This document shows positions 1,048 to 63,185 of a stretch of 64,000 nucleotides of DNA, piece by piece. The stretch's first letter is position 1. Each line of letters begins with the position of its first letter. Both the position numbers and the translations under genes were made by a program. The notes beneath the pieces were generated by a model, which made no database searches, was not told the origin of the DNA, and saw only the letters and a list, made by a program, of their open reading frames with translations. The stretch lies in the IMG/VR virus record IMGVR_UViG_3300042914_002678. One strand, 5' to 3'. The stretch is from a virus. Taxonomy: Duplodnaviria; Caudoviricetes.

Positions 1048-3539
1048 GATTTTACACTAATGTTCAATTGATTGGAAATCAATTTTTGGTTCGTGGCGTT
1101 GAAGATGATAAAAGATTTGAGACAAGAGATGAGTTTTTCCCAACTCTATTTGTAAAGACAAAAAAAGATTCTAAGTATAGAACATTAGGTGGAGAAGCAG
1201 TAGAACCAATCAATCCAGGAACAGTTCGTGACTGTCGTGAGTTCTACAAAAAGTATGATGAGATTGATGGGTTTGAAATCTACGGTAATGATCGTTACAT
1301 CTACCAATATATCTCAGAGAAATACCCTGAAGATGAAATCAAGTTTGACATTAGTAAAATCAAACTTGTAACTCTTGATATTGAGGTTGCTTCTGAAGAA
1401 GGATTCCCTGATGTAGAATCTTGCTCAGAAGAAATCCTTGCAATCACAATTCAGGACTACACCACTAAAAAGATTATTACTTGGGGAGTAAAACCATTCA
1501 ACAATAAACAAAAGAATGTTACTTACCATCACTGCCCAAGTGAGTATGAACTTCTGAATCACTTTATCAACTATTGGATGGTTGATGTTCCTGATGTGAT
1601 TACTGGTTGGAACATTCAGTTGTATGATATTCCATATATCTGTAAGCGTTTGAATCGTGTTCTTGGTGAAAAACTAATGAAGCGTTTTTCGAACTGGGGA
1701 CTGGTTACTGAAGGCGAAGTTTTTATCAATGGACGTAAGCACACGACATTTGATGTTGGTGGTTTGACTCAATTAGACTATCTTGACCTCTATAAGAAGT
1801 TCACTTATAAGGCACAAGAATCATACCGTCTTGACTATATTGCTGAAGTAGAACTGGGGCAAAAGAAACTAGACCACTCTGAGTTTGATACCTTTAAGGA
1901 CTTCTATACTCAAGGTTGGCAAAAGTTTATTGAATACAACATCGTTGACGTGGAACTTGTTGACCGTTTGGAAGACAAGATGAAACTGATTGAACTTGCA
2001 CTTACGATGGCATACGACGCAAAGGTAAACTATGCGGATGTGTTCTATCAGGTAAGGATGTGGGACAATATTATCTACAACTATCTTAAGAAGCGGGATA
2101 TTGTCATTCCTCCAAGGAACAAATCTCAGAAGAATGAAAAGTATGCTGGTGCATATGTAAAAGAACCAAAACCTGGTAGGTATGATTGGGTTGTGAACTT
2201 TGACCTTAACTCACTGTATCCACACTTGATTATGCAATACAACATCTCCCCAGAAACTCTGGTTGATGAAAGGCACCCAACAGTAAGTGTTGACAAAATC
2301 CTCAATCAATCAATTAACTTTGAGATGTATAAGGACTATGCAGTATGTGCTAATGGTGCAATGTTCCGAAAGGACATTCGTGGATTCCTTCCAGAACTGA
2401 TGGAAAAAATGTATCAGGATAGGGTCATCTTCAAGAAGAAGATGATTGCTGCAAAGAAAGAGTATGAGAAAACCAAAAACAAAGAATTGGTAAAAGAGAT
2501 TGCCCGCTGTAATAACATTCAGATGGCAAAGAAGATTTCTCTAAACTCTGCTTATGGTGCCATCGGAAATCAATACTTCCGTTATTATAAACTTGCAAAT
2601 GCAGAAGCAATCACTCTGTCTGGTCAAGTTTCAATTCGGTGGATTGAAAACAAGATGAACACTTATATAAACAAACTACTCAAGACTGAAGATGTTGATT
2701 ACGTTATTGCTTCGGATACTGATTCTATCTATCTTAATATGGGTCCTTTGGTTGAGACTGTATACAAAGGAAGAGAGAAAACTACTGAAGGCATTGTTTC
2801 GTTCCTTGATAAGGTCGCTTCAATGGAACTTGAAAAGTATATTGAGGGTTCTTACCAAGAACTGGCGACCTATGTGAATGCTTATGACCAGAAGATGCAA
2901 ATGAAGCGAGAGAACATCGCTGACCGTGGCATCTGGACTGCGAAGAAGCGATACATCCTTAATGTATGGGACAGTGAAGGTGTCCGATATGAGGAACCTA
3001 AACTCAAGATGATGGGTATTGAGGCAGTTAAATCTTCTACCCCAGCACCTTGCCGTAAAATGATTAAGGATGCTCTTAAGTTGATGATGAGTGGAACTGA
3101 AGATGAAGTTATTGACTTTATTGAAAATTCCCGTAAGGAGTTCAAGTCTTTACCTCCAGAGCAAATTTCATTCCCTCGTTCTGCATCTGATGTTGTTAAA
3201 TATCAGTCATCTTCCGACATTTATATAAAAGGAACTCCGATTCATGTTCGCGGAGCACTTCTGTTCAATCACTACGTTAAAGAGAATAAGTTGACTAATA
3301 AGTATTCTCTAATTCAAAACGGCGAGAAGATTAAGTTTGTATACTTGAAAAAACCAAACACAATACACGAGAATGTGATCTCCTTTATTCAAGAATTTCC
3401 AAAGGAACTTAACCTTGACAGATACATAGACTATGAACTACAATTTGAGAAAGCATTTCTAGAACCACTCAAGATTATCCTTGATTCGATTGGGTGGTCT
3501 GTAGAAAAAACTGTAAACCTTGATTCCTTTTTTGCTTGA
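1044..3539 (+). CDS. gp43: Family B DNA polymerase (T4 gp43)
   Basis: ExoI LDIEV; PolB motifs FDLNSLYPH, KISLNSAYG, ASDTDSIY, KKRY. Confidence 0.98.
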   Translation: MRFYTNVQLIGNQFLVRGVEDDKRFETRDEFFPTLFVKTKKDSKYRTLGGEAVEPINPGTVRDCREFYKKYDEIDGFEIYGNDRYIYQYISEKYPEDEIKFDISKIKLVTLDIEVASEEGFPDVESCSEEILAITIQDYTTKKIITWGVKPFNNKQKNVTYHHCPSEYELLNHFINYWMVDVPDVITGWNIQLYDIPYICKRLNRVLGEKLMKRFSNWGLVTEGEVFINGRKHTTFDVGGLTQLDYLDLYKKFTYKAQESYRLDYIAEVELGQKKLDHSEFDTFKDFYTQGWQKFIEYNIVDVELVDRLEDKMKLIELALTMAYDAKVNYADVFYQVRMWDNIIYNYLKKRDIVIPPRNKSQKNEKYAGAYVKEPKPGRYDWVVNFDLNSLYPHLIMQYNISPETLVDERHPTVSVDKILNQSINFEMYKDYAVCANGAMFRKDIRGFLPELMEKMYQDRVIFKKKMIAAKKEYEKTKNKELVKEIARCNNIQMAKKISLNSAYGAIGNQYFRYYKLANAEAITLSGQVSIRWIENKMNTYINKLLKTEDVDYVIASDTDSIYLNMGPLVETVYKGREKTTEGIVSFLDKVASMELEKYIEGSYQELATYVNAYDQKMQMKRENIADRGIWTAKKRYILNVWDSEGVRYEEPKLKMMGIEAVKSSTPAPCRKMIKDALKLMMSGTEDEVIDFIENSRKEFKSLPPEQISFPRSASDVVKYQSSSDIYIKGTPIHVRGALLFNHYVKENKLTNKYSLIQNGEKIKFVYLKKPNTIHENVISFIQEFPKELNLDRYIDYELQFEKAFLEPLKIILDSIGWSVEKTVNLDSFFA

Positions 3540-7457: not shown

Positions 7458-7639
7458 CTAAAGAAAAACAAGTTACACTTAAACTAGATGCACGTTGTGC
7501 TGCAGCAGTTCGTCAAGTTCTATTTGATGCACAGAAAGGATACACTTATGATGAAGTGAGTGTTCCTCCTCGTGTCTCTGATATTCGTGGAGTAATTCAA
7601 CAACTTGATGATAATATTGGCGCTGTCCTTGGTGTTTGA
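7454..7639 (+). CDS. Hypothetical protein
   Basis: 61-aa ORF coupled to mazG (GTGA overlap). Confidence 0.7.
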   Translation: MTKEKQVTLKLDARCAAAVRQVLFDAQKGYTYDEVSVPPRVSDIRGVIQQLDDNIGAVLGV

Positions 7640-7665
7640 CCCTTCGGGGTCTTTTTTTATAAATA
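7638..7665 (+). terminator. UUCG-loop intrinsic terminator followed by a late promoter
   Basis: gaccc-ttcg-gggtc plus T-run, immediately followed by TATAAATA (7658-7665). Confidence 0.85.
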
Positions 7666-12965: not shown

Positions 12966-13126
12966 TTACTTGTTTAGTAACCAATTGGGGGGTTACTGTT
13001 CTTCTTGGAGTTCTTCTTGCTTTATCTGAATGGATAGGTAGAAATCAAAATCTAAAAGAGAATAGTATTTTGTGTTTTATAATTAATTTTTTGAGAGTTG
13101 TTCTTCGTAAAGGGGACCAAAAGTAA
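12962..13126 (+). CDS. Small membrane protein (holin-like hydropathy)
   Basis: Manual: MITCLVTNWGVTVLLGVLLALSEWIGRNQNLKENSILCFIINFLRVVLRKGDQK*. ATGA overlap with the previous gene. Confidence 0.6.
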   Translation: MITCLVTNWGVTVLLGVLLALSEWIGRNQNLKENSILCFIINFLRVVLRKGDQK

Positions 13127-13147
13127 GGTCTCCTTTTTTTATAAATA
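13110..13147 (+). terminator. Intrinsic terminator followed by a late promoter
   Basis: aaaggggacc-aaaagtaa-ggtctccttt plus T-run, then TATAAATA at 13140. Confidence 0.7.
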
Positions 13148-20846: not shown

Positions 20847-20908
20847 TAAAATAGAATATAACAACTGAATAATAAATAGAGGAGAGCGGTTGCTACTCCT
20901 CTTTTTTT

Positions 20909-21316
20909 ATGTTTAATTTTAACTTCGGAAAGAAGAAACCAGATAAGAAGCAGATAATCCTTATAAGCCTCATACTCAGTGGTATCGTAGCAACCCTCTC
21001 CCAATGCACAGGAGCGCCCCAGGAGGCGCTCTGGGACCTTCTAGACGAGGTACAGAGGTCTCTGTTCCCAGGCACCATAATCAACGATGTCCTGCTCCAA
21101 GACCCTGGTGTGGTGGATAGAAGAGTTGAGAGAGATGTGGATAAAGCAATCAGAGAGTATGAACGCTTGACAAAGGACTCAGAACCACCTAGAGTACCTT
21201 TGCCCAGGTTGATTGAGAAAGATCCAGATGGCTCAGAGGCTCAAAGATTACTTGGTGGTGAAATGAGACTATGTGCTCCATGGGTTGACGATTGCCCTAA
21301 AGAACCTGTAAAATAG
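20909..21316 (+). CDS. Hypothetical membrane/lipoprotein
   Basis: Basic N-terminus, then hydrophobic IILISLILSGIVATLSQC. Confidence 0.7.
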   Translation: MFNFNFGKKKPDKKQIILISLILSGIVATLSQCTGAPQEALWDLLDEVQRSLFPGTIINDVLLQDPGVVDRRVERDVDKAIREYERLTKDSEPPRVPLPRLIEKDPDGSEAQRLLGGEMRLCAPWVDDCPKEPVK

Positions 21317-21686: not shown

Positions 21687-21768
21687 TCATGGGTGTTGAG
21701 GGTCCAAACCTCAAGTAAATCCTACCCCTCCCATGCCTCTCACAGAAGCACAAACAGGGAGGTCTCTT

Positions 21769-26721: not shown

Positions 26722-26845
26722 TAGGTGGTGGAGTCAATATGACCCCTTGGTTTCTTGCTTTTCCTCAAGAGCAAGTGGTGCGGATGGGGAATTCTTTCTC
26801 CGCCTGGTTTCCAATTTCCAGTTAAAGAATTGGTGGCGAGCCTGA
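26722..26845 (+). ncRNA. manA-like (manA/wcaG class) cyanophage structured RNA
   Basis: Two tandem modules, GGTTTCTTGC...GAGCAAGTGGTGCGGATGG and CTGGTTTCCAATTTCCAG...AATTGGTGGCGAGC, the second an H-type pseudoknot. Resembles the manA motif as I recall it; needs a covariance-model check. Confidence 0.65.
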
Positions 26846-26852
26846 GTTACCG

Positions 26853-43303: not shown

Positions 43304-43307
43304 ATTT

Positions 43308-43355
43308 ATTACGTAACTACTTATTTTTATAAATAATTTAAAGTAGTTACGTAAT
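43308..43355 (+). promoter_or_regulatory. 15-bp perfect inverted repeat with a late promoter in its loop
   Basis: attacgtaactactt (43308-43322) / aagtagttacgtaat (43341-43355). TATAAATA at 43328. ATG at 43359. Confidence 0.8.
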
Positions 43356-43358
43356 ACT

Positions 43359-44325: not shown

Positions 44326-44390
44326 ACATAATTAAGCGTCTCAAAGAGGCGCTTTTTTTATAAATATCTGAGTGTTTAGAGTAATATCCA

Positions 44391-45062: not shown

Positions 45063-45183
45063 GTTTAAAAAAAAGATTCTGGAAGAAGTGAAGAAACTCA
45101 CAAATCAAGGCAAACATAAAGAAGCAAGTGAATTATTCGATATATACTTTCCAAATATAGGAGGCAACAATGGCAAGAATTGA
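45034..45183 (+). CDS. Small hypothetical protein (49 aa)
   Basis: From ATG 45034: MMGGEGSSTEFKKKILEEVKKLTNQGKHKEASELF... Confidence 0.55.
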   Translation: MMGGEGSSTEFKKKILEEVKKLTNQGKHKEASELFDIYFPNIGGNNGKN

Positions 45184-45847
45184 CCTGCACAACTTCTTCA
45201 AGTTTTATGACGAGAAGAACCCTAACCACGTTAAAGCAGTACAGTGGTTAGAAGATAATCTCCCAGTCAAATATCTAGAGGATAACATTGATTGGGCGGA
45301 GATTTATCGCGGAAAAAAGACTAGTGCTGCACCAGCCCCTGCCGCTGCTGCAGCTCCCTCTGCCCCAGTAGCAGGTGGTGATGATGTACCGCAAATGGGC
45401 ATTAAGTTAATTAAAGAGTTTGAAGGATGCCATCTAAAGGCATATCCTGACCCTTTGACTGGTGGACTTCCAATCACAATCGGTTGGGGTTCTACCCGTA
45501 AGAAGGATGGTTCAGCATTCAAACTTGGTGATACACTTACTCAACAAGAAGCTGATGAACTCTTAATTGAACAATGTAAAAAAGAGTTTCTCCCAGCACT
45601 TCGTAAAATTCCACATTGGGGAGAAATGTCTGATGGAAAGAGGGGAGCTCTGCTCAGCTTTGCTTATAATCTTGGTGCCGGTTTTTACGGTGGCGATAAC
45701 TTTAATACTATTACTAAACGCCTGAAGAATAAAGAGTGGGACCTAGTTCCCGATGCTCTTTACCTCTACCGCAATCCCGGTTCAAATGTAGAAGCAGGAC
45801 TTGCTCGTAGAAGAAAGGCAGAAGGTGAAGCCTGGAAGAAGGGATAA
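45170..45847 (+). CDS. Phage lysozyme (GH24) with an N-terminal extension
   Basis: LIKEFEGCHLKAYPDP...TIGWG, ALLSFAYNLG, GLARRRKAE. Confidence 0.92.
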   Translation: MARIDLHNFFKFYDEKNPNHVKAVQWLEDNLPVKYLEDNIDWAEIYRGKKTSAAPAPAAAAAPSAPVAGGDDVPQMGIKLIKEFEGCHLKAYPDPLTGGLPITIGWGSTRKKDGSAFKLGDTLTQQEADELLIEQCKKEFLPALRKIPHWGEMSDGKRGALLSFAYNLGAGFYGGDNFNTITKRLKNKEWDLVPDALYLYRNPGSNVEAGLARRRKAEGEAWKKG

Positions 45848-45905
45848 ATATAGTTACAATCATTACTGATTCTTGATCTTAACTGGTCTGAATCTACATA
45901 CTCCG

Positions 45906-45988
45906 AGTCCTCTGTGATTCGGTGAATACTTTACCTTTAAACATACTTCGGTTTGTTTTGTTTAGTACACACTGAGTCATAGAGGACT
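45906..45988 (+). ncRNA. Candidate cis-regulatory RNA sequestering the RBS of the autotransporter-like gene
   Basis: 19-bp helix agtcctctgtgattcggtg / cactgagtcatagaggact whose three non-Watson-Crick pairs are all G-U. The 3' arm holds the GAGGA SD. Internal UUCG hairpin. Confidence 0.65.
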
Positions 45989-45992
45989 TTAT

Positions 45993-48626
45993 ATGTCTTA
46001 CACTACAAAGGCGCTTGCTGCAGCGTCTGCGCTATTAGTTGGCGCACCAGCAGCATTTGCAGGAAATGTCACATTACAAGGCAACTGCGTAAAAATCGGT
46101 ACAAGTGATTTAGGAACTATAGGTTCGCAAGGAAACACCGCACCTGGTATTCTCTACGATTCTACTTGTACTGGAACCTTCAATCCATCATACGATTACC
46201 TCACACCAGGAACTCCTTTTGAGGGATGGACAATTAAAGGACTAGATGCGACTGGAGCAATCATCTTTAATCACACTAATAATAATGCTTCTTATATGGG
46301 TTCTAGTCCAATAACAGGAACCAATGCAGATTATTCTGGTGTCTCCTATCGTGGAGTTACATTTGATAATCGTGCAGTATGGTCTGGTTCAACCTCAAAC
46401 TTTCATATTGAACACGATGTAAGATTTAATGATAATCAACACTTTGTCGATATCAATACTCGTTTAGAGTTTTTAATTAATGTTCCCACTCTTTACTTCG
46501 GCAGATTCACTGACCCAGACGCAAGAGCTGCCGCAGGTGATAGTTCTGCGACTCTTAATGTCAGAGGATATGCAGGTGGTATTCCTGCAACCAATGTGGT
46601 TCTATCAGAAGCACTTGCATCCAAGTATGCTCTTGGACTGTTCACGGGGCAAATTGGTGGAGTTAATGCTGGTGTAAGTGCTGGATGGACTAGTGATCCA
46701 GTTGACTATTATAATGGAGTAAATGATGGTGATGGAGATTACACCATTGGACTTGGTTTTATGTTCACTGGTTTAAATGCCGGGGACATTGTTAACGTTC
46801 AATATGCATATATCTTTGGACCATCCGCATTCGCTGCTGGTTCTGGTGCTGTTGCTGGTGGTGCTGGTGGTTCTACTCCATCAACCTTTACTGTTACTGA
46901 CGTAGGTTCTGCTTCTGCACCAACAACTCCTTCAACGCCAACAGTCACAGGAACTTCAACTGCAGATTCAGTATCAACTTCAACATCATCATCAACTAGA
47001 ACTGAAACTTCTTATGTAACAAGAACAATCAACTCTACTGATACTGATGGAAATCCAGTTGTAAGAACTTATGTTGATACTGTTGTAACAACTATTCCAG
47101 TTACAACCACAACAACTACAACAACACCAGTTACAACCACAACGTATTCTGATGGTTCCACAACAACATCAAACGGAACACCAGTAGTTACCACCTCTAC
47201 TTCTGATGGAACTGGAACGGATGCTGTAACTGGAACTATTCTTGATGCTACTGCTGTTACAAGAACTGTTACAACAACTTCAAGTTCTTCTTCTTCCACA
47301 ACTGGAACCAGAACAGTTACTAGAACTGTAACCGATACAGATGCATCTGGAAATCCAAGAACTAGAACTTATACTGATACTGTTCTTGATACAACACCAG
47401 TCACAACAACCACAACAACGTCCACACCAGTCACAACCATCTATCATGCAGATGGTTCAACCACAGTTATAGAAGGAACTTCCACATCTTCAAGTTCTTC
47501 TTCAAATGGAAATGTAAGTTCTTCTGTGATTGCAACTGCTCTTGATGCAACCGTAGTTACCCGTCCTTCTGTATCATCCTCATCAGTTCAGTCCTCAACT
47601 CTTCCAGTTGTAAATGTAACTCTTACAGAGCACGATGCATCTGAAAACAAAGGAGTTCAGAAGATTGCAAGACACCATACAACAACTACCACAACTCCGA
47701 TGGTAAGAACTGTTGTAACCACACCAGTTACGACTACGACTAATTCGGATGGAACTGAAACCGTATCTAACGGAACACCTACAACTACATATGAGCTTTG
47801 GAATGATGTTGGTATTTCACACACATATGATAACTTGTTTGGTCGTGTAGACCAATTAGAAGTTCTTGGCAATATTAATGATAGTATTAATGGAATTCTC
47901 AATCACGAGGCATCACCAAACTGGAATAAGAGATTAAGAATCTTTGAGAACAATAGATTTGTTCAGTCCTATAATGCTGACGGATACACTGCGGATTCTA
48001 AAATCTTTGGTGGTGGATTTGAGTTTGATTTAACAAAAGGTTGGACGGTTGGTTACCAGTATAATAATGTAAATGTTAAACTTCGTGGTTCCGATTCAAA
48101 CACAACACAAGTTAAGAATGTTCATGGAATCTTCAACACATTCCATGGCAATACATTTACTTTAAATACGAATGCAGCAATTGCAGATAGTAAGTACAAT
48201 TATAATAGAACAGTCGAAGGTGTATTTAATAATACTGGTTCCACAACTGGAAACGAGTGGTGGGTAACAAACCGTCTCTATATGCACGTAACCAAGTGGT
48301 TAAGTCCATTTGTTGGTTATACTGCGTGGAACAACAAGAGAAACGCTTATGTAGAAACTGGTTCGATTCAGTCTTCCAGAACTGTTGAGGCATTCAATCA
48401 AACAACTCACGTCGGTGAAGCAGGGCTCAAACTTGAAACCAGATTTGGAGGTAAGAAGAGTGATGTTTTTGGTGTCAGTGTTGATGGTGCTTATGCTACT
48501 GATAACTCTTATGGTGTCAGTGCATCAATAGATTATAAAGAGATGTTAATTATTGAGGCATCCCACGGTGTAAATGATAATGTAACTAACAATTCTATTG
48601 CTGGTAAAGTTAAGTTTAGGTTCTAA
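45993..48626 (+). CDS. Autotransporter-like outer-membrane protein with a Thr/Ser-rich stalk
   Basis: Signal peptide, Gly/Asn-rich passenger, Thr-rich repeats, and an amphipathic beta-strand C-terminus ending KVKFRF. Confidence 0.75.
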   Translation: MSYTTKALAAASALLVGAPAAFAGNVTLQGNCVKIGTSDLGTIGSQGNTAPGILYDSTCTGTFNPSYDYLTPGTPFEGWTIKGLDATGAIIFNHTNNNASYMGSSPITGTNADYSGVSYRGVTFDNRAVWSGSTSNFHIEHDVRFNDNQHFVDINTRLEFLINVPTLYFGRFTDPDARAAAGDSSATLNVRGYAGGIPATNVVLSEALASKYALGLFTGQIGGVNAGVSAGWTSDPVDYYNGVNDGDGDYTIGLGFMFTGLNAGDIVNVQYAYIFGPSAFAAGSGAVAGGAGGSTPSTFTVTDVGSASAPTTPSTPTVTGTSTADSVSTSTSSSTRTETSYVTRTINSTDTDGNPVVRTYVDTVVTTIPVTTTTTTTTPVTTTTYSDGSTTTSNGTPVVTTSTSDGTGTDAVTGTILDATAVTRTVTTTSSSSSSTTGTRTVTRTVTDTDASGNPRTRTYTDTVLDTTPVTTTTTTSTPVTTIYHADGSTTVIEGTSTSSSSSSNGNVSSSVIATALDATVVTRPSVSSSSVQSSTLPVVNVTLTEHDASENKGVQKIARHHTTTTTTPMVRTVVTTPVTTTTNSDGTETVSNGTPTTTYELWNDVGISHTYDNLFGRVDQLEVLGNINDSINGILNHEASPNWNKRLRIFENNRFVQSYNADGYTADSKIFGGGFEFDLTKGWTVGYQYNNVNVKLRGSDSNTTQVKNVHGIFNTFHGNTFTLNTNAAIADSKYNYNRTVEGVFNNTGSTTGNEWWVTNRLYMHVTKWLSPFVGYTAWNNKRNAYVETGSIQSSRTVEAFNQTTHVGEAGLKLETRFGGKKSDVFGVSVDGAYATDNSYGVSASIDYKEMLIIEASHGVNDNVTNNSIAGKVKFRF
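46900..47790 (+). repeat. Three degenerate Thr-rich repeats (TPVTTTTYSDGSTTTSNGTP-like)
   Basis: TPVTTTTYSDGSTTTSNGT, TPVTTIYHADGSTTVIEGT and TPVTTTTNSDGTETVSNGT in the protein. Boundaries approximate. Confidence 0.8.
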
Positions 48627-56990: not shown

Positions 56991-57051
56991 AAATAGGTAA
57001 ACAAATGTTACGAATTTCTCACAATTCTTAACATTGTCAAACACCCCGCAA

Positions 57052-57150
57052 ACCGAGACCTCTAGGGTGTATAAATTACGTCTCTCATATCCCCGCTAAG
57101 GGTGCGGGGAGCATAGTATCTCCACCATTTCCCTGATGGTCTTACTATCC
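57052..57150 (+). ncRNA. PhotoRC-II-like structured psbA leader
   Basis: gagac...gtctc stem, ccgc-taagggt-gcgg and accat-ttccctg-atggt hairpins, flanked by atagta/tactat. Location and motifs match the cyanophage psbA-leader RNA as recalled. Confidence 0.7.
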
Positions 57151-60105: not shown

Positions 60106-60234
60106 TATACTGGGAGGGGAAACCCTCCTTTTTTAATGATTAGTTCAGAGACACCCTATAAACTAGCAGAAATAATTAGGGATACTTGGCCACAGTTATA
60201 CTCACTAAATAATTTTCAAAACAATAAAAAAGAT

Positions 60235-63053: not shown

Positions 63054-63060
63054 ACCCTTA

Positions 63061-63153
63061 CGTTCATCCAGGAAACTGGACGCAAGTAGGACGGCGGAAC
63101 GGAACGTTCATTTGCTATTCGCAAATAGCAAACGCAAACCGCCCGAAGGAACG
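63061..63153 (+). ncRNA. Tandem Downstream-peptide / glutamine-II riboswitch-like RNA
   Basis: Two units of CGTTCAT-[hairpin]-ACGCAA...GGAACG (63061-63101 and 63105-63153), upstream of a YRG-motif peptide. Confidence 0.8.
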
Positions 63154-63185
63154 GGATTAACCATCTCATTCTGGAGGAAATCCTA

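Follow-up and report, generated by a model that had tools for sequence, protein, structure and literature searches.

A conserved, predicted two-state RNA leader upstream of an autotransporter-like gene in freshwater cyanophages

An autotransporter-like gene in IMG/VR virus record IMGVR_UViG_3300042914_002678 (a stretch of 64,000 nucleotides (nt), analysed along its whole length and referred to as the window) is preceded by a structured 5' leader, in which a long hairpin pairs the Shine-Dalgarno (SD) sequence of the gene with an upstream complement, and in which the upstream arm can also fold onto itself. The window is that of a T4-like freshwater Synechococcus phage (Kyanoviridae), a cyanophage for which the closest GenBank records are those of DSL-LC02 and DSL-LC03, also freshwater Synechococcus phages. 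The hairpin rod, its covariation, its strand specificity, the conserved competitor hairpin in the 5' arm, the asymmetry between the two arms and an upstream late-promoter-like box are directly supported. From sequence comparison, the leader marks an RNA family not yet catalogued and confined to a clade of freshwater Kyanoviridae (cyanomyoviruses). Folding models suggest that it has two designed states, only one of which has a free ribosome site, because self-folding of the 5' arm, or its pairing with a hairpin further upstream, is available in 30 of 35 leaders, and self-folding of the 3' arm in none. The best reading, tentatively held at somewhat less than an even chance, is a translational gate that is off by default and decided co-transcriptionally, with a logic like that of the MS2 maturation-gene leader and possibly with the aid of a factor.

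Structure of the leader

The rod, designated P2, consists of 20 base pairs (bp), of which four are G-U (Table 1). An initial annotation, made from the letters of the window, had described a 19-bp helix (45906-45924 with 45970-45988) in which the sole non-Watson-Crick positions were three G-U pairs, and this description was exact (G45914-U45980, U45918-G45976 and G45921-U45973); the pair G45905-U45989 is the twentieth. The same annotation had reported a 45-nt loop with a UUCG hairpin, which was likewise found, the loop itself being an imperfect stem. The spacing of GAGGA to the ATG needed correction, from the 4-5 nt given to 6 nt. Two further elements accompany the rod, namely a 5'-proximal hairpin, P1, and a short helix, P0, which covers the start codon.

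Table 1. Features of the leader and of its surroundings in the window
Feature	Position	Strand	Description and basis
Peroxiredoxin, C39-like peptidase, then phage lysozyme genes	45170-45847 (lysozyme)		5' of the leader
Late-promoter-like box GATAAATA	45843-45850	+	Overlaps the lysozyme stop codon; TAAATA at 45845-45850
P1 hairpin, 5'-proximal	45868-45894	+	Outer stem GAUUC/GAAUC, inner stem GAUC/GGUC; present in the minimum free energy (MFE) fold
P0 5' strand, ACAUA	45896-45900	+	Pairs with UAUGU 45992-45996, covering the start codon; MFE
Pt, competitor hairpin in the 5' arm	45903-45922	+	45903-45909 with 45916-45922, loop CUCUGU; prefix folding
P2 5' arm	45905-45924	+	Holds anti-SD-like UCCUC; sequence reading, MFE, covariation
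Apical part of the rod	45925-45969	+	Imperfect upper stem, cap C(UUCG)G at 45946-45951; MFE
P2 3' arm	45970-45989	+	Holds SD GAGGA at 45982-45986; sequence reading, MFE, covariation
U-rich tail and start codon	45988-45995	+	Tail UUUAUAUG in the window, mostly AUUUUUAUG in relatives; ATG 45993-45995
Autotransporter-like open reading frame (ORF)	45993-48626	+	877 amino acids (aa); translation

A 106-nt stretch of the leader has an MFE of -42.5 kcal/mol (z -7.85), and none of 200 shuffled sequences folded as well, while the minus strand of the same stretch reached only -30.6 kcal/mol. The rod energy of -42.5 kcal/mol at 37 °C falls to -53 kcal/mol at 25 °C, and the rod is second-ranked among the inverted repeats listed, of 39 found in the 64-kb window. 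Opening the region from -20 to +6 around 45993 was calculated to cost 27.4 kcal/mol, the highest value among 80 ORFs of the window (median 6.9). The equilibrium fold is thus modelled as occluding both the SD and the AUG, and the earlier suggestion that translation is off by default is in this respect supported structurally.

Conservation and distribution of the leader

With the N-terminal domain of the protein as query, 49 IMG/VR loci and 46 metagenome loci were recovered, and 35 distinct leader sequences were counted from IMG/VR, metagenomes and two GenBank phages. Homologs with at least about 65% identity and an intact upstream flank all have [A/C]TAAATA, P1, ACAUA, a long rod, a U-rich tail and the ATG. 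The rod was recovered by independent single-sequence folding in all 35 leaders, with a helix length of 14-32 bp (median 24, small internal loops allowed), and the AUG is fully paired in the MFE fold of 29. An SD-like motif lies in the 3' arm of 26 leaders. Leader types of unrelated stem sequence (L004/L015/L051/L074, L024, L041 and L043) have the same architecture, some versions with unrelated stems also being without an SD, and the apical part varies in length and sequence, or is replaced, in types other than that of the window.

Pairing was also assessed with a covariance model built from ten leaders, to which 20 distinct sequences were aligned. In this alignment 97.3% of cells were paired and compensatory changes were present at 15 pairs; none of 500 shuffles was as good, and sliding the partners by 1-3 columns left 30-45% paired. 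The P1 helices were paired in 99% of cases, with one pair changed on both sides in each, and P0 was paired in all 20 sequences, where its changes were limited to C-to-U facing the G of the start codon and a single A-to-G facing a U, so that wobble pairing was kept. Across the rods of the 35 leaders, 735 Watson-Crick and 77 G-U pairs were tallied with only 8 A-C mismatches; because G-U far outnumber A-C, the functional strand is the plus-strand RNA. These comparisons argue for strong selection of the leader at the RNA level, in agreement with the initial annotation, which had read the G-U pairs in this way and had proposed the homolog and covariation search.

The leader accompanies the autotransporter gene and is retained with different upstream genes, among them DUF6450 and a C39 peptidase. 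The covariance model found one copy per genome in four relatives and no match in one further fragment (G001). Homologs of the protein at 49-60% identity are without the leader, have free SDs and added no covariation. A comparison with Rfam (4227 models; the window at gathering thresholds, and 45800-46050 at E values up to 10) returned for the leader only sub-threshold look-alikes of miRNA precursors, and the initial annotation had likewise recognised no family; annotation pipelines currently miss it. A riboswitch was considered and rejected, there being no conserved ligand core, an apical part that is shortened or replaced in other types, and no Rfam match.

One contig bears on the leader by what it lacks. 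L037 (IMGVR_UViG_3300008113_003285, 2940-3006) has a lysozyme gene cut at residue 187 and fused to the apical part of the rod, without the late box, P1 and the entire 5' arm, and otherwise resembles L035, L036 and L038. It is either a natural deletion that would leave the 3' arm free or an assembly chimera.

A competitor hairpin in the 5' arm

The 5' arm of the rod contains its own hairpin, Pt (-9.1 kcal/mol), which appeared without exception in the predicted folds of successive transcript prefixes up to the emergence of about 10 nt of the 3' arm. C45903 and C45904 are paired solely in the Pt fold and are unpaired in the rod. Relatives also have a version of Pt with 8 bp and a triloop. The self-fold of the 5' arm beats 95% of shuffles in 30 of the 35 leaders (median -9.1 versus -3.2 kcal/mol), including the L024, L041 and L043 types, whereas that of the 3' arm is significant in none (median -0.4), and this one-sided asymmetry is present in every leader type. 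The L004/L074 types have a different competitor, formed when the 3' strand of P1 pairs with the 5' arm, in a 1:2 / 2:3 / 3:4 layout. A comparable antiterminator between P1 and the 5' arm was rejected for the main leader type, since the 7-bp pairing of the window is not retained in relatives. The competitor did not figure in the initial annotation, nor did the paired AUG, the terminator-like U-rich tail or the SD-less leaders considered below.

The time needed for the rod to close was estimated as a one-dimensional first-passage time along a findpath route at 25 °C, with an assumed 1e6 elementary steps per second, and is therefore rough. By this estimate the SD would be buried within 0.02-13 s in 15 of 16 leaders, with one outlier at about 3,400 s. 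Unobstructed zipping of a helix takes microseconds, by an estimate of our own that was not computed, and against this value Pt would make closure several orders of magnitude slower. The delay predicted by the model is roughly as long as 30S loading and the transcription of the remaining start region, and is thus borderline.

Transcription context

The TAAATA box is suggested by its position and sequence to act as a late promoter, and the basis for this assignment is late-promoter practice in T4 and cyanomyoviruses (PMC3037559). In the window, TAAATA ends 0-40 nt before the ORF for 15 of 71 plus-strand ORFs, versus 2 expected, with a usual spacing of 13-30 nt. The box of the leader ends 142 nt upstream of the ATG and about 55 nt before the 5' arm, so that late transcripts should contain the whole hairpin. 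Of 23 leader versions examined, 21 have [A/C]TAAATA upstream of the ATG, at a distance of about 100-149 nt, also where the upstream gene differs. An alternative start inside the loop, as had been suggested by the initial annotation, found no support, since the sole TAAATA lies upstream and none of the 35 loops contains TAAATA or a sigma-70-like pair.

A leader peptide or upstream ORF was rejected, the leader having no ATG and its sole GTG frame (45922-45975) having no SD and being shifted by indels in relatives. Small shares of the window are represented in 24 metatranscriptome runs, and the four examined are assembled contigs of mixed relatives. All of these include the lysozyme gene and one includes the leader, but they are uninformative on transcript starts, ends and levels, and no inference was drawn from them.

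Proposed mechanism

In the proposed mechanism, positions 45857-45995 would form the 5' leader (roughly 135 nt) of the late autotransporter mRNA and would act as a two-state cis-regulatory RNA; the transcription start site, the loading of ribosomes, the actual rate of refolding and the effect on protein output are all presumed. In state A, which would form first during transcription, the 5' arm would be self-paired as Pt, or paired with the 3' strand of P1 in one leader type, and the ribosome-binding site would be free because no other partner is available to the 3' arm. In state B, the equilibrium fold, P2 and the imperfect upper stem would be closed by P0, with the SD, the 20 nt upstream and the AUG paired and initiation blocked. 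Expression would be decided in the interval between the exit of the start region from the polymerase and the displacement of Pt by the 3' arm. Each mRNA would probably yield a small amount of protein, coupled to transcription, before the message is locked. The open state could be prolonged by a factor that holds Pt, and the conserved competitor hairpin in the 5' arm may itself be the 'trigger' that the initial annotation had sought.

The closest parallel is the leader of the MS2 maturation gene, in which translation is controlled by delayed folding (reviewed in PMC4615214). In both, the equilibrium fold pairs the SD with an upstream complement, here with covariation, and a conserved metastable hairpin first holds the upstream strand while the nascent ribosome site is free; no ligand is needed. 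Unlike the MS2 case, the leader belongs to the mRNA of a double-stranded DNA (dsDNA) phage, which the host polymerase would transcribe from the putative late promoter. Inhibition is by a 20-bp rod, where MS2 has a 7-bp contact over a long distance; the competitor can be displaced by branch migration, and the predicted delay is roughly 0.02-10 s instead of minutes. There is no sequence homology between the two.

Several points weigh against the proposed gate. Refolding from Pt to the rod meets only a low barrier, which on the best direct path is 4.2 kcal/mol for the window and across leaders has a median of 4.6 (range 2.3-10.1), because branch migration allows Pt to be displaced by the 3' arm. 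The closing time of the window, about 0.03 s, is shorter than the time to transcribe the remaining start region, so that the open interval may be nil. The transient 5' hairpin could simply help the long-range helix to fold, in which case there would be no ON state. The tail, which is U-rich and in most relatives U5, resembles part of a terminator, and burial of the SD is not universal, since in 9 of the 35 leaders the 3' arm contains none. The alignment used for covariation had been fitted to the structure of the model, and the gate as a whole rests on sequence and on predicted folds.

The stricter version of the gate, a protein-free, self-closing translational timer in a dsDNA phage, is doubtful and less probable than the gate in its general form. 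If it is true, each late transcript would be translatable only briefly after its synthesis, from a fraction of a second up to a few seconds, and the strength of the competitor hairpin, which varies between phage lineages, would set the dose of the surface autotransporter. To our knowledge, it would be the first MS2-like delayed-folding gate outside single-stranded RNA phages. Post-transcriptional gene regulation in cyanophages is almost unexplored, and the known wcaG and PhotoRC-II leaders have no assigned mechanism. The present leader is simple, single-copy and well supported by covariation, with two clear-cut alternative folds, and the gene product is placed on the surface of the infected cell, making it a tractable system for how a dsDNA phage limits or times the translation of late mRNA. 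The two cytosines paired only in the competitor fold, C45903 and C45904, permit a clean test of Pt.

Alternative explanations

The alternative that the leader is an intrinsic terminator or attenuator is unlikely, though it has points in its favour. The rod and U-rich tail would stop transcripts of the lysozyme operon and those from the leader's own late box, the gene would be expressed by read-through, and the competitor would be an antiterminator. The leader resembles intrinsic terminators and trp-type attenuators in that a hairpin is followed by a U-rich tract, with a competitor overlapping the 5' arm, and the layout in the L004/L074 types is literally 1:2 / 2:3 / 3:4; unlike trp-type attenuators, it has no leader peptide. 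In most relatives AUUUUUAUG stands immediately after the stem, and in some an A-rich 5' flank pairs with the tail. Other elements with a hairpin and U-run against an ATG are present in the phage (20880-20908 and 60113-60134), and there is no ordinary terminator between 44352 and 60113. However, the 12 clear terminators of the phage are 5-8 bp GC-rich hairpins followed by U6-7, while the rod has at least 20 bp, is far longer and AU-richer, and has a tail that adjoins and partly pairs with the start codon. The ordinary terminators usually precede a late box (three as U7-ATAAATA), whereas the rod lies downstream of its promoter. The window tail is UUUAUAU, with only three U before an A, and in several relatives a C interrupts the tract. 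P0 pairs the AUG, which is beyond the expected point of release, and the leader travels with the downstream gene and not with the upstream gene. Attenuation could also act together with a translational block.

Opening by a factor acting in trans is similarly improbable. Either host RNase III would cut the rod and free a 3' fragment with the SD, or a protein or RNA would hold Pt or the 5' arm during the 45-nt delay and so keep the rod from forming. An SD freed by RNase III has precedents in the lambda N and adhE leaders, and factors binding a 5' arm are known from RAT/BglG-type antitermination and from DsrA-rpoS. Like RNase III sites, the rod offers about two turns of double-stranded RNA; in most leader types, also those of unrelated sequence, the lower stem is about two helical turns long, and mismatches cluster in the middle of the helix. 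Cleavage-dependent activation or decay is possible, since a 20-bp helix is a plausible substrate. A Synechococcus control genome encodes RNase III and proteins with double-stranded RNA-binding domains (dsRBD) and RNA recognition motifs (RRM). The opening cost of 27 kcal/mol is too high for spontaneous opening, and the low barrier from Pt to the rod would suit a switch decided by a factor. Against such a factor, RNase III, dsRBD, cold-shock domain (CSD) and RRM proteins were not found in two complete and two near-complete phage relatives, in which the only such candidate found was RegA. The lower stems are only 14-17 bp in some leaders, and the stems and loops of Pt differ among leader types, which argues against a sequence-specific binder. 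An antisense RNA trigger, as proposed in the initial annotation, gained no candidate from the search of the 64-kb window, in which complements to either arm outside the leader were limited to chance-level 9-11-mers.

Less probable still is a static element, in which the leader would be a stabilising or processing structure or a permanent damper of translation, and Pt only an aid to co-transcriptional folding. A two-hairpin leader of roughly 135 nt recalls stabilisers in 5' untranslated regions (UTRs), of which ompA is an example; the rod is more stable than the Pt state, or any alternative, by about 20 kcal/mol, and the search for a trigger yielded none. Nevertheless, a canonical, well-spaced SD is retained in 26 of the 35 leaders though it would almost never be free, the asymmetry of the arms is present in every leader type, and weakening of the SD would be a simpler route to damping.

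Control of the kind known from T4 e, soc and I-TevI, with a late promoter inside the hairpin, or an RNA thermometer is very improbable: a true T4-type example does occur in the window (43307-43356, HNH gene, 16-bp stem, TATAAATA in the loop) and another in the homolog L086, but the loops of the leaders lack such promoters and the box lies upstream of the 5' arm, while a helix of -42 kcal/mol is far stronger than known thermometers. Thermometers of the ROSE and fourU kinds need a weak, imperfect SD helix and were rejected for the 20-bp rod (-42.5 kcal/mol at 37 °C); temperature, another of the triggers first proposed, is accordingly very unlikely.

Relation to other phage leaders

The leader shares features with other phage leaders besides that of MS2. 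As in the leaders of T4 genes e, soc, 49 and I-TevI, a hairpin in a T4-like phage buries the SD and AUG of a late gene, but the internal late promoter that defines those leaders is absent, the box being placed about 55 nt upstream of the 5' arm. Like wcaG RNA and PhotoRC-II, which are both in the window (26746 and 57029), it is a conserved structured 5' UTR before a particular accessory gene of cyanophages; it matches neither in sequence or structure.

The downstream gene

The product of the downstream gene has a signal peptide, a globular N-domain, Ser/Thr-rich repeats, a helix with a 12-strand barrel and a C-terminal KFRF. In the AlphaFold model of its last 289 aa (predicted local distance difference test, pLDDT, 80), one helix (33-47) is followed by 12 strands, and the best matches of the barrel in the PDB were the translocator domains of NalP, EstA, Hbp, BrkA and EspP (E 3e-13, template modelling (TM) score 0.73-0.75). 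Comparison of the 877-aa ORF with Pfam and NCBIfam gave no significant match to autotransporter family models. The label of type Va autotransporter is therefore justified by the predicted NalP-type fold and not by sequence, so that the name used in the initial annotation holds for the former and fails for the latter.

The autotransporter is 653-888 aa long in close relatives, with variation mostly in the stalk of Ser/Thr-rich repeats, which in the window lies at 47000-47800 (residues about 300-600). One relative, L016, has a truncated reading frame of 330 aa. The homolog L086 (metagenome contig Ga0114978_10026793, 1040-1110) is 60% identical and has a different leader, a T4-style 12-bp hairpin whose loop contains TAAATA and whose 3' arm carries GGGAG and ends at the ATG; occlusion of the start site thus recurs in the autotransporter gene family. 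The sole match of the N-domain to a cellular genome, at 49% identity, is L105, on contig QCCT01000010.1 of the single-cell assembly Prochlorococcus sp. AG-347-M18. Its leader is AT-rich with TAAATA boxes, and the sequence is for this reason probably phage DNA from an infected cell.

Other features of the window

The window contains 13 tRNA genes. Rfam matches above the gathering score were wcaG RNA (26746-26847) before a block of glycan genes, PhotoRC-II (57029-57124) before psbA, a glutamine riboswitch aptamer (63059-63157) and a short abiF RNA match (21727-21763) in the tRNA cluster, adjoining tRNA-Arg, which may be spurious.

A perfect 16-bp hairpin at 43307-43358, with TATAAATA in its 18-nt loop and a 3' arm ending 2 nt before the ATG (43359) of an HNH endonuclease gene, has the classic arrangement of the T4 I-TevI type, and the opening energy of this start site, 21.0 kcal/mol, is the second-highest in the window. 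At 20873-20911, a hairpin and U-run adjoin a start codon and the late box overlaps the 5' arm, so that late transcripts would start within the hairpin. A fused module occurs at 7638-7665, 13112-13147 and 44336-44366, where a short GC-rich terminator hairpin is followed by U7 running into ATAAATA, the U-tract of the terminator also serving as the upstream portion of the late promoter. The region 60113-60138 has a textbook terminator, GGAGGG GAAA CCCUCC U6, that ends 1 nt before an ATG.

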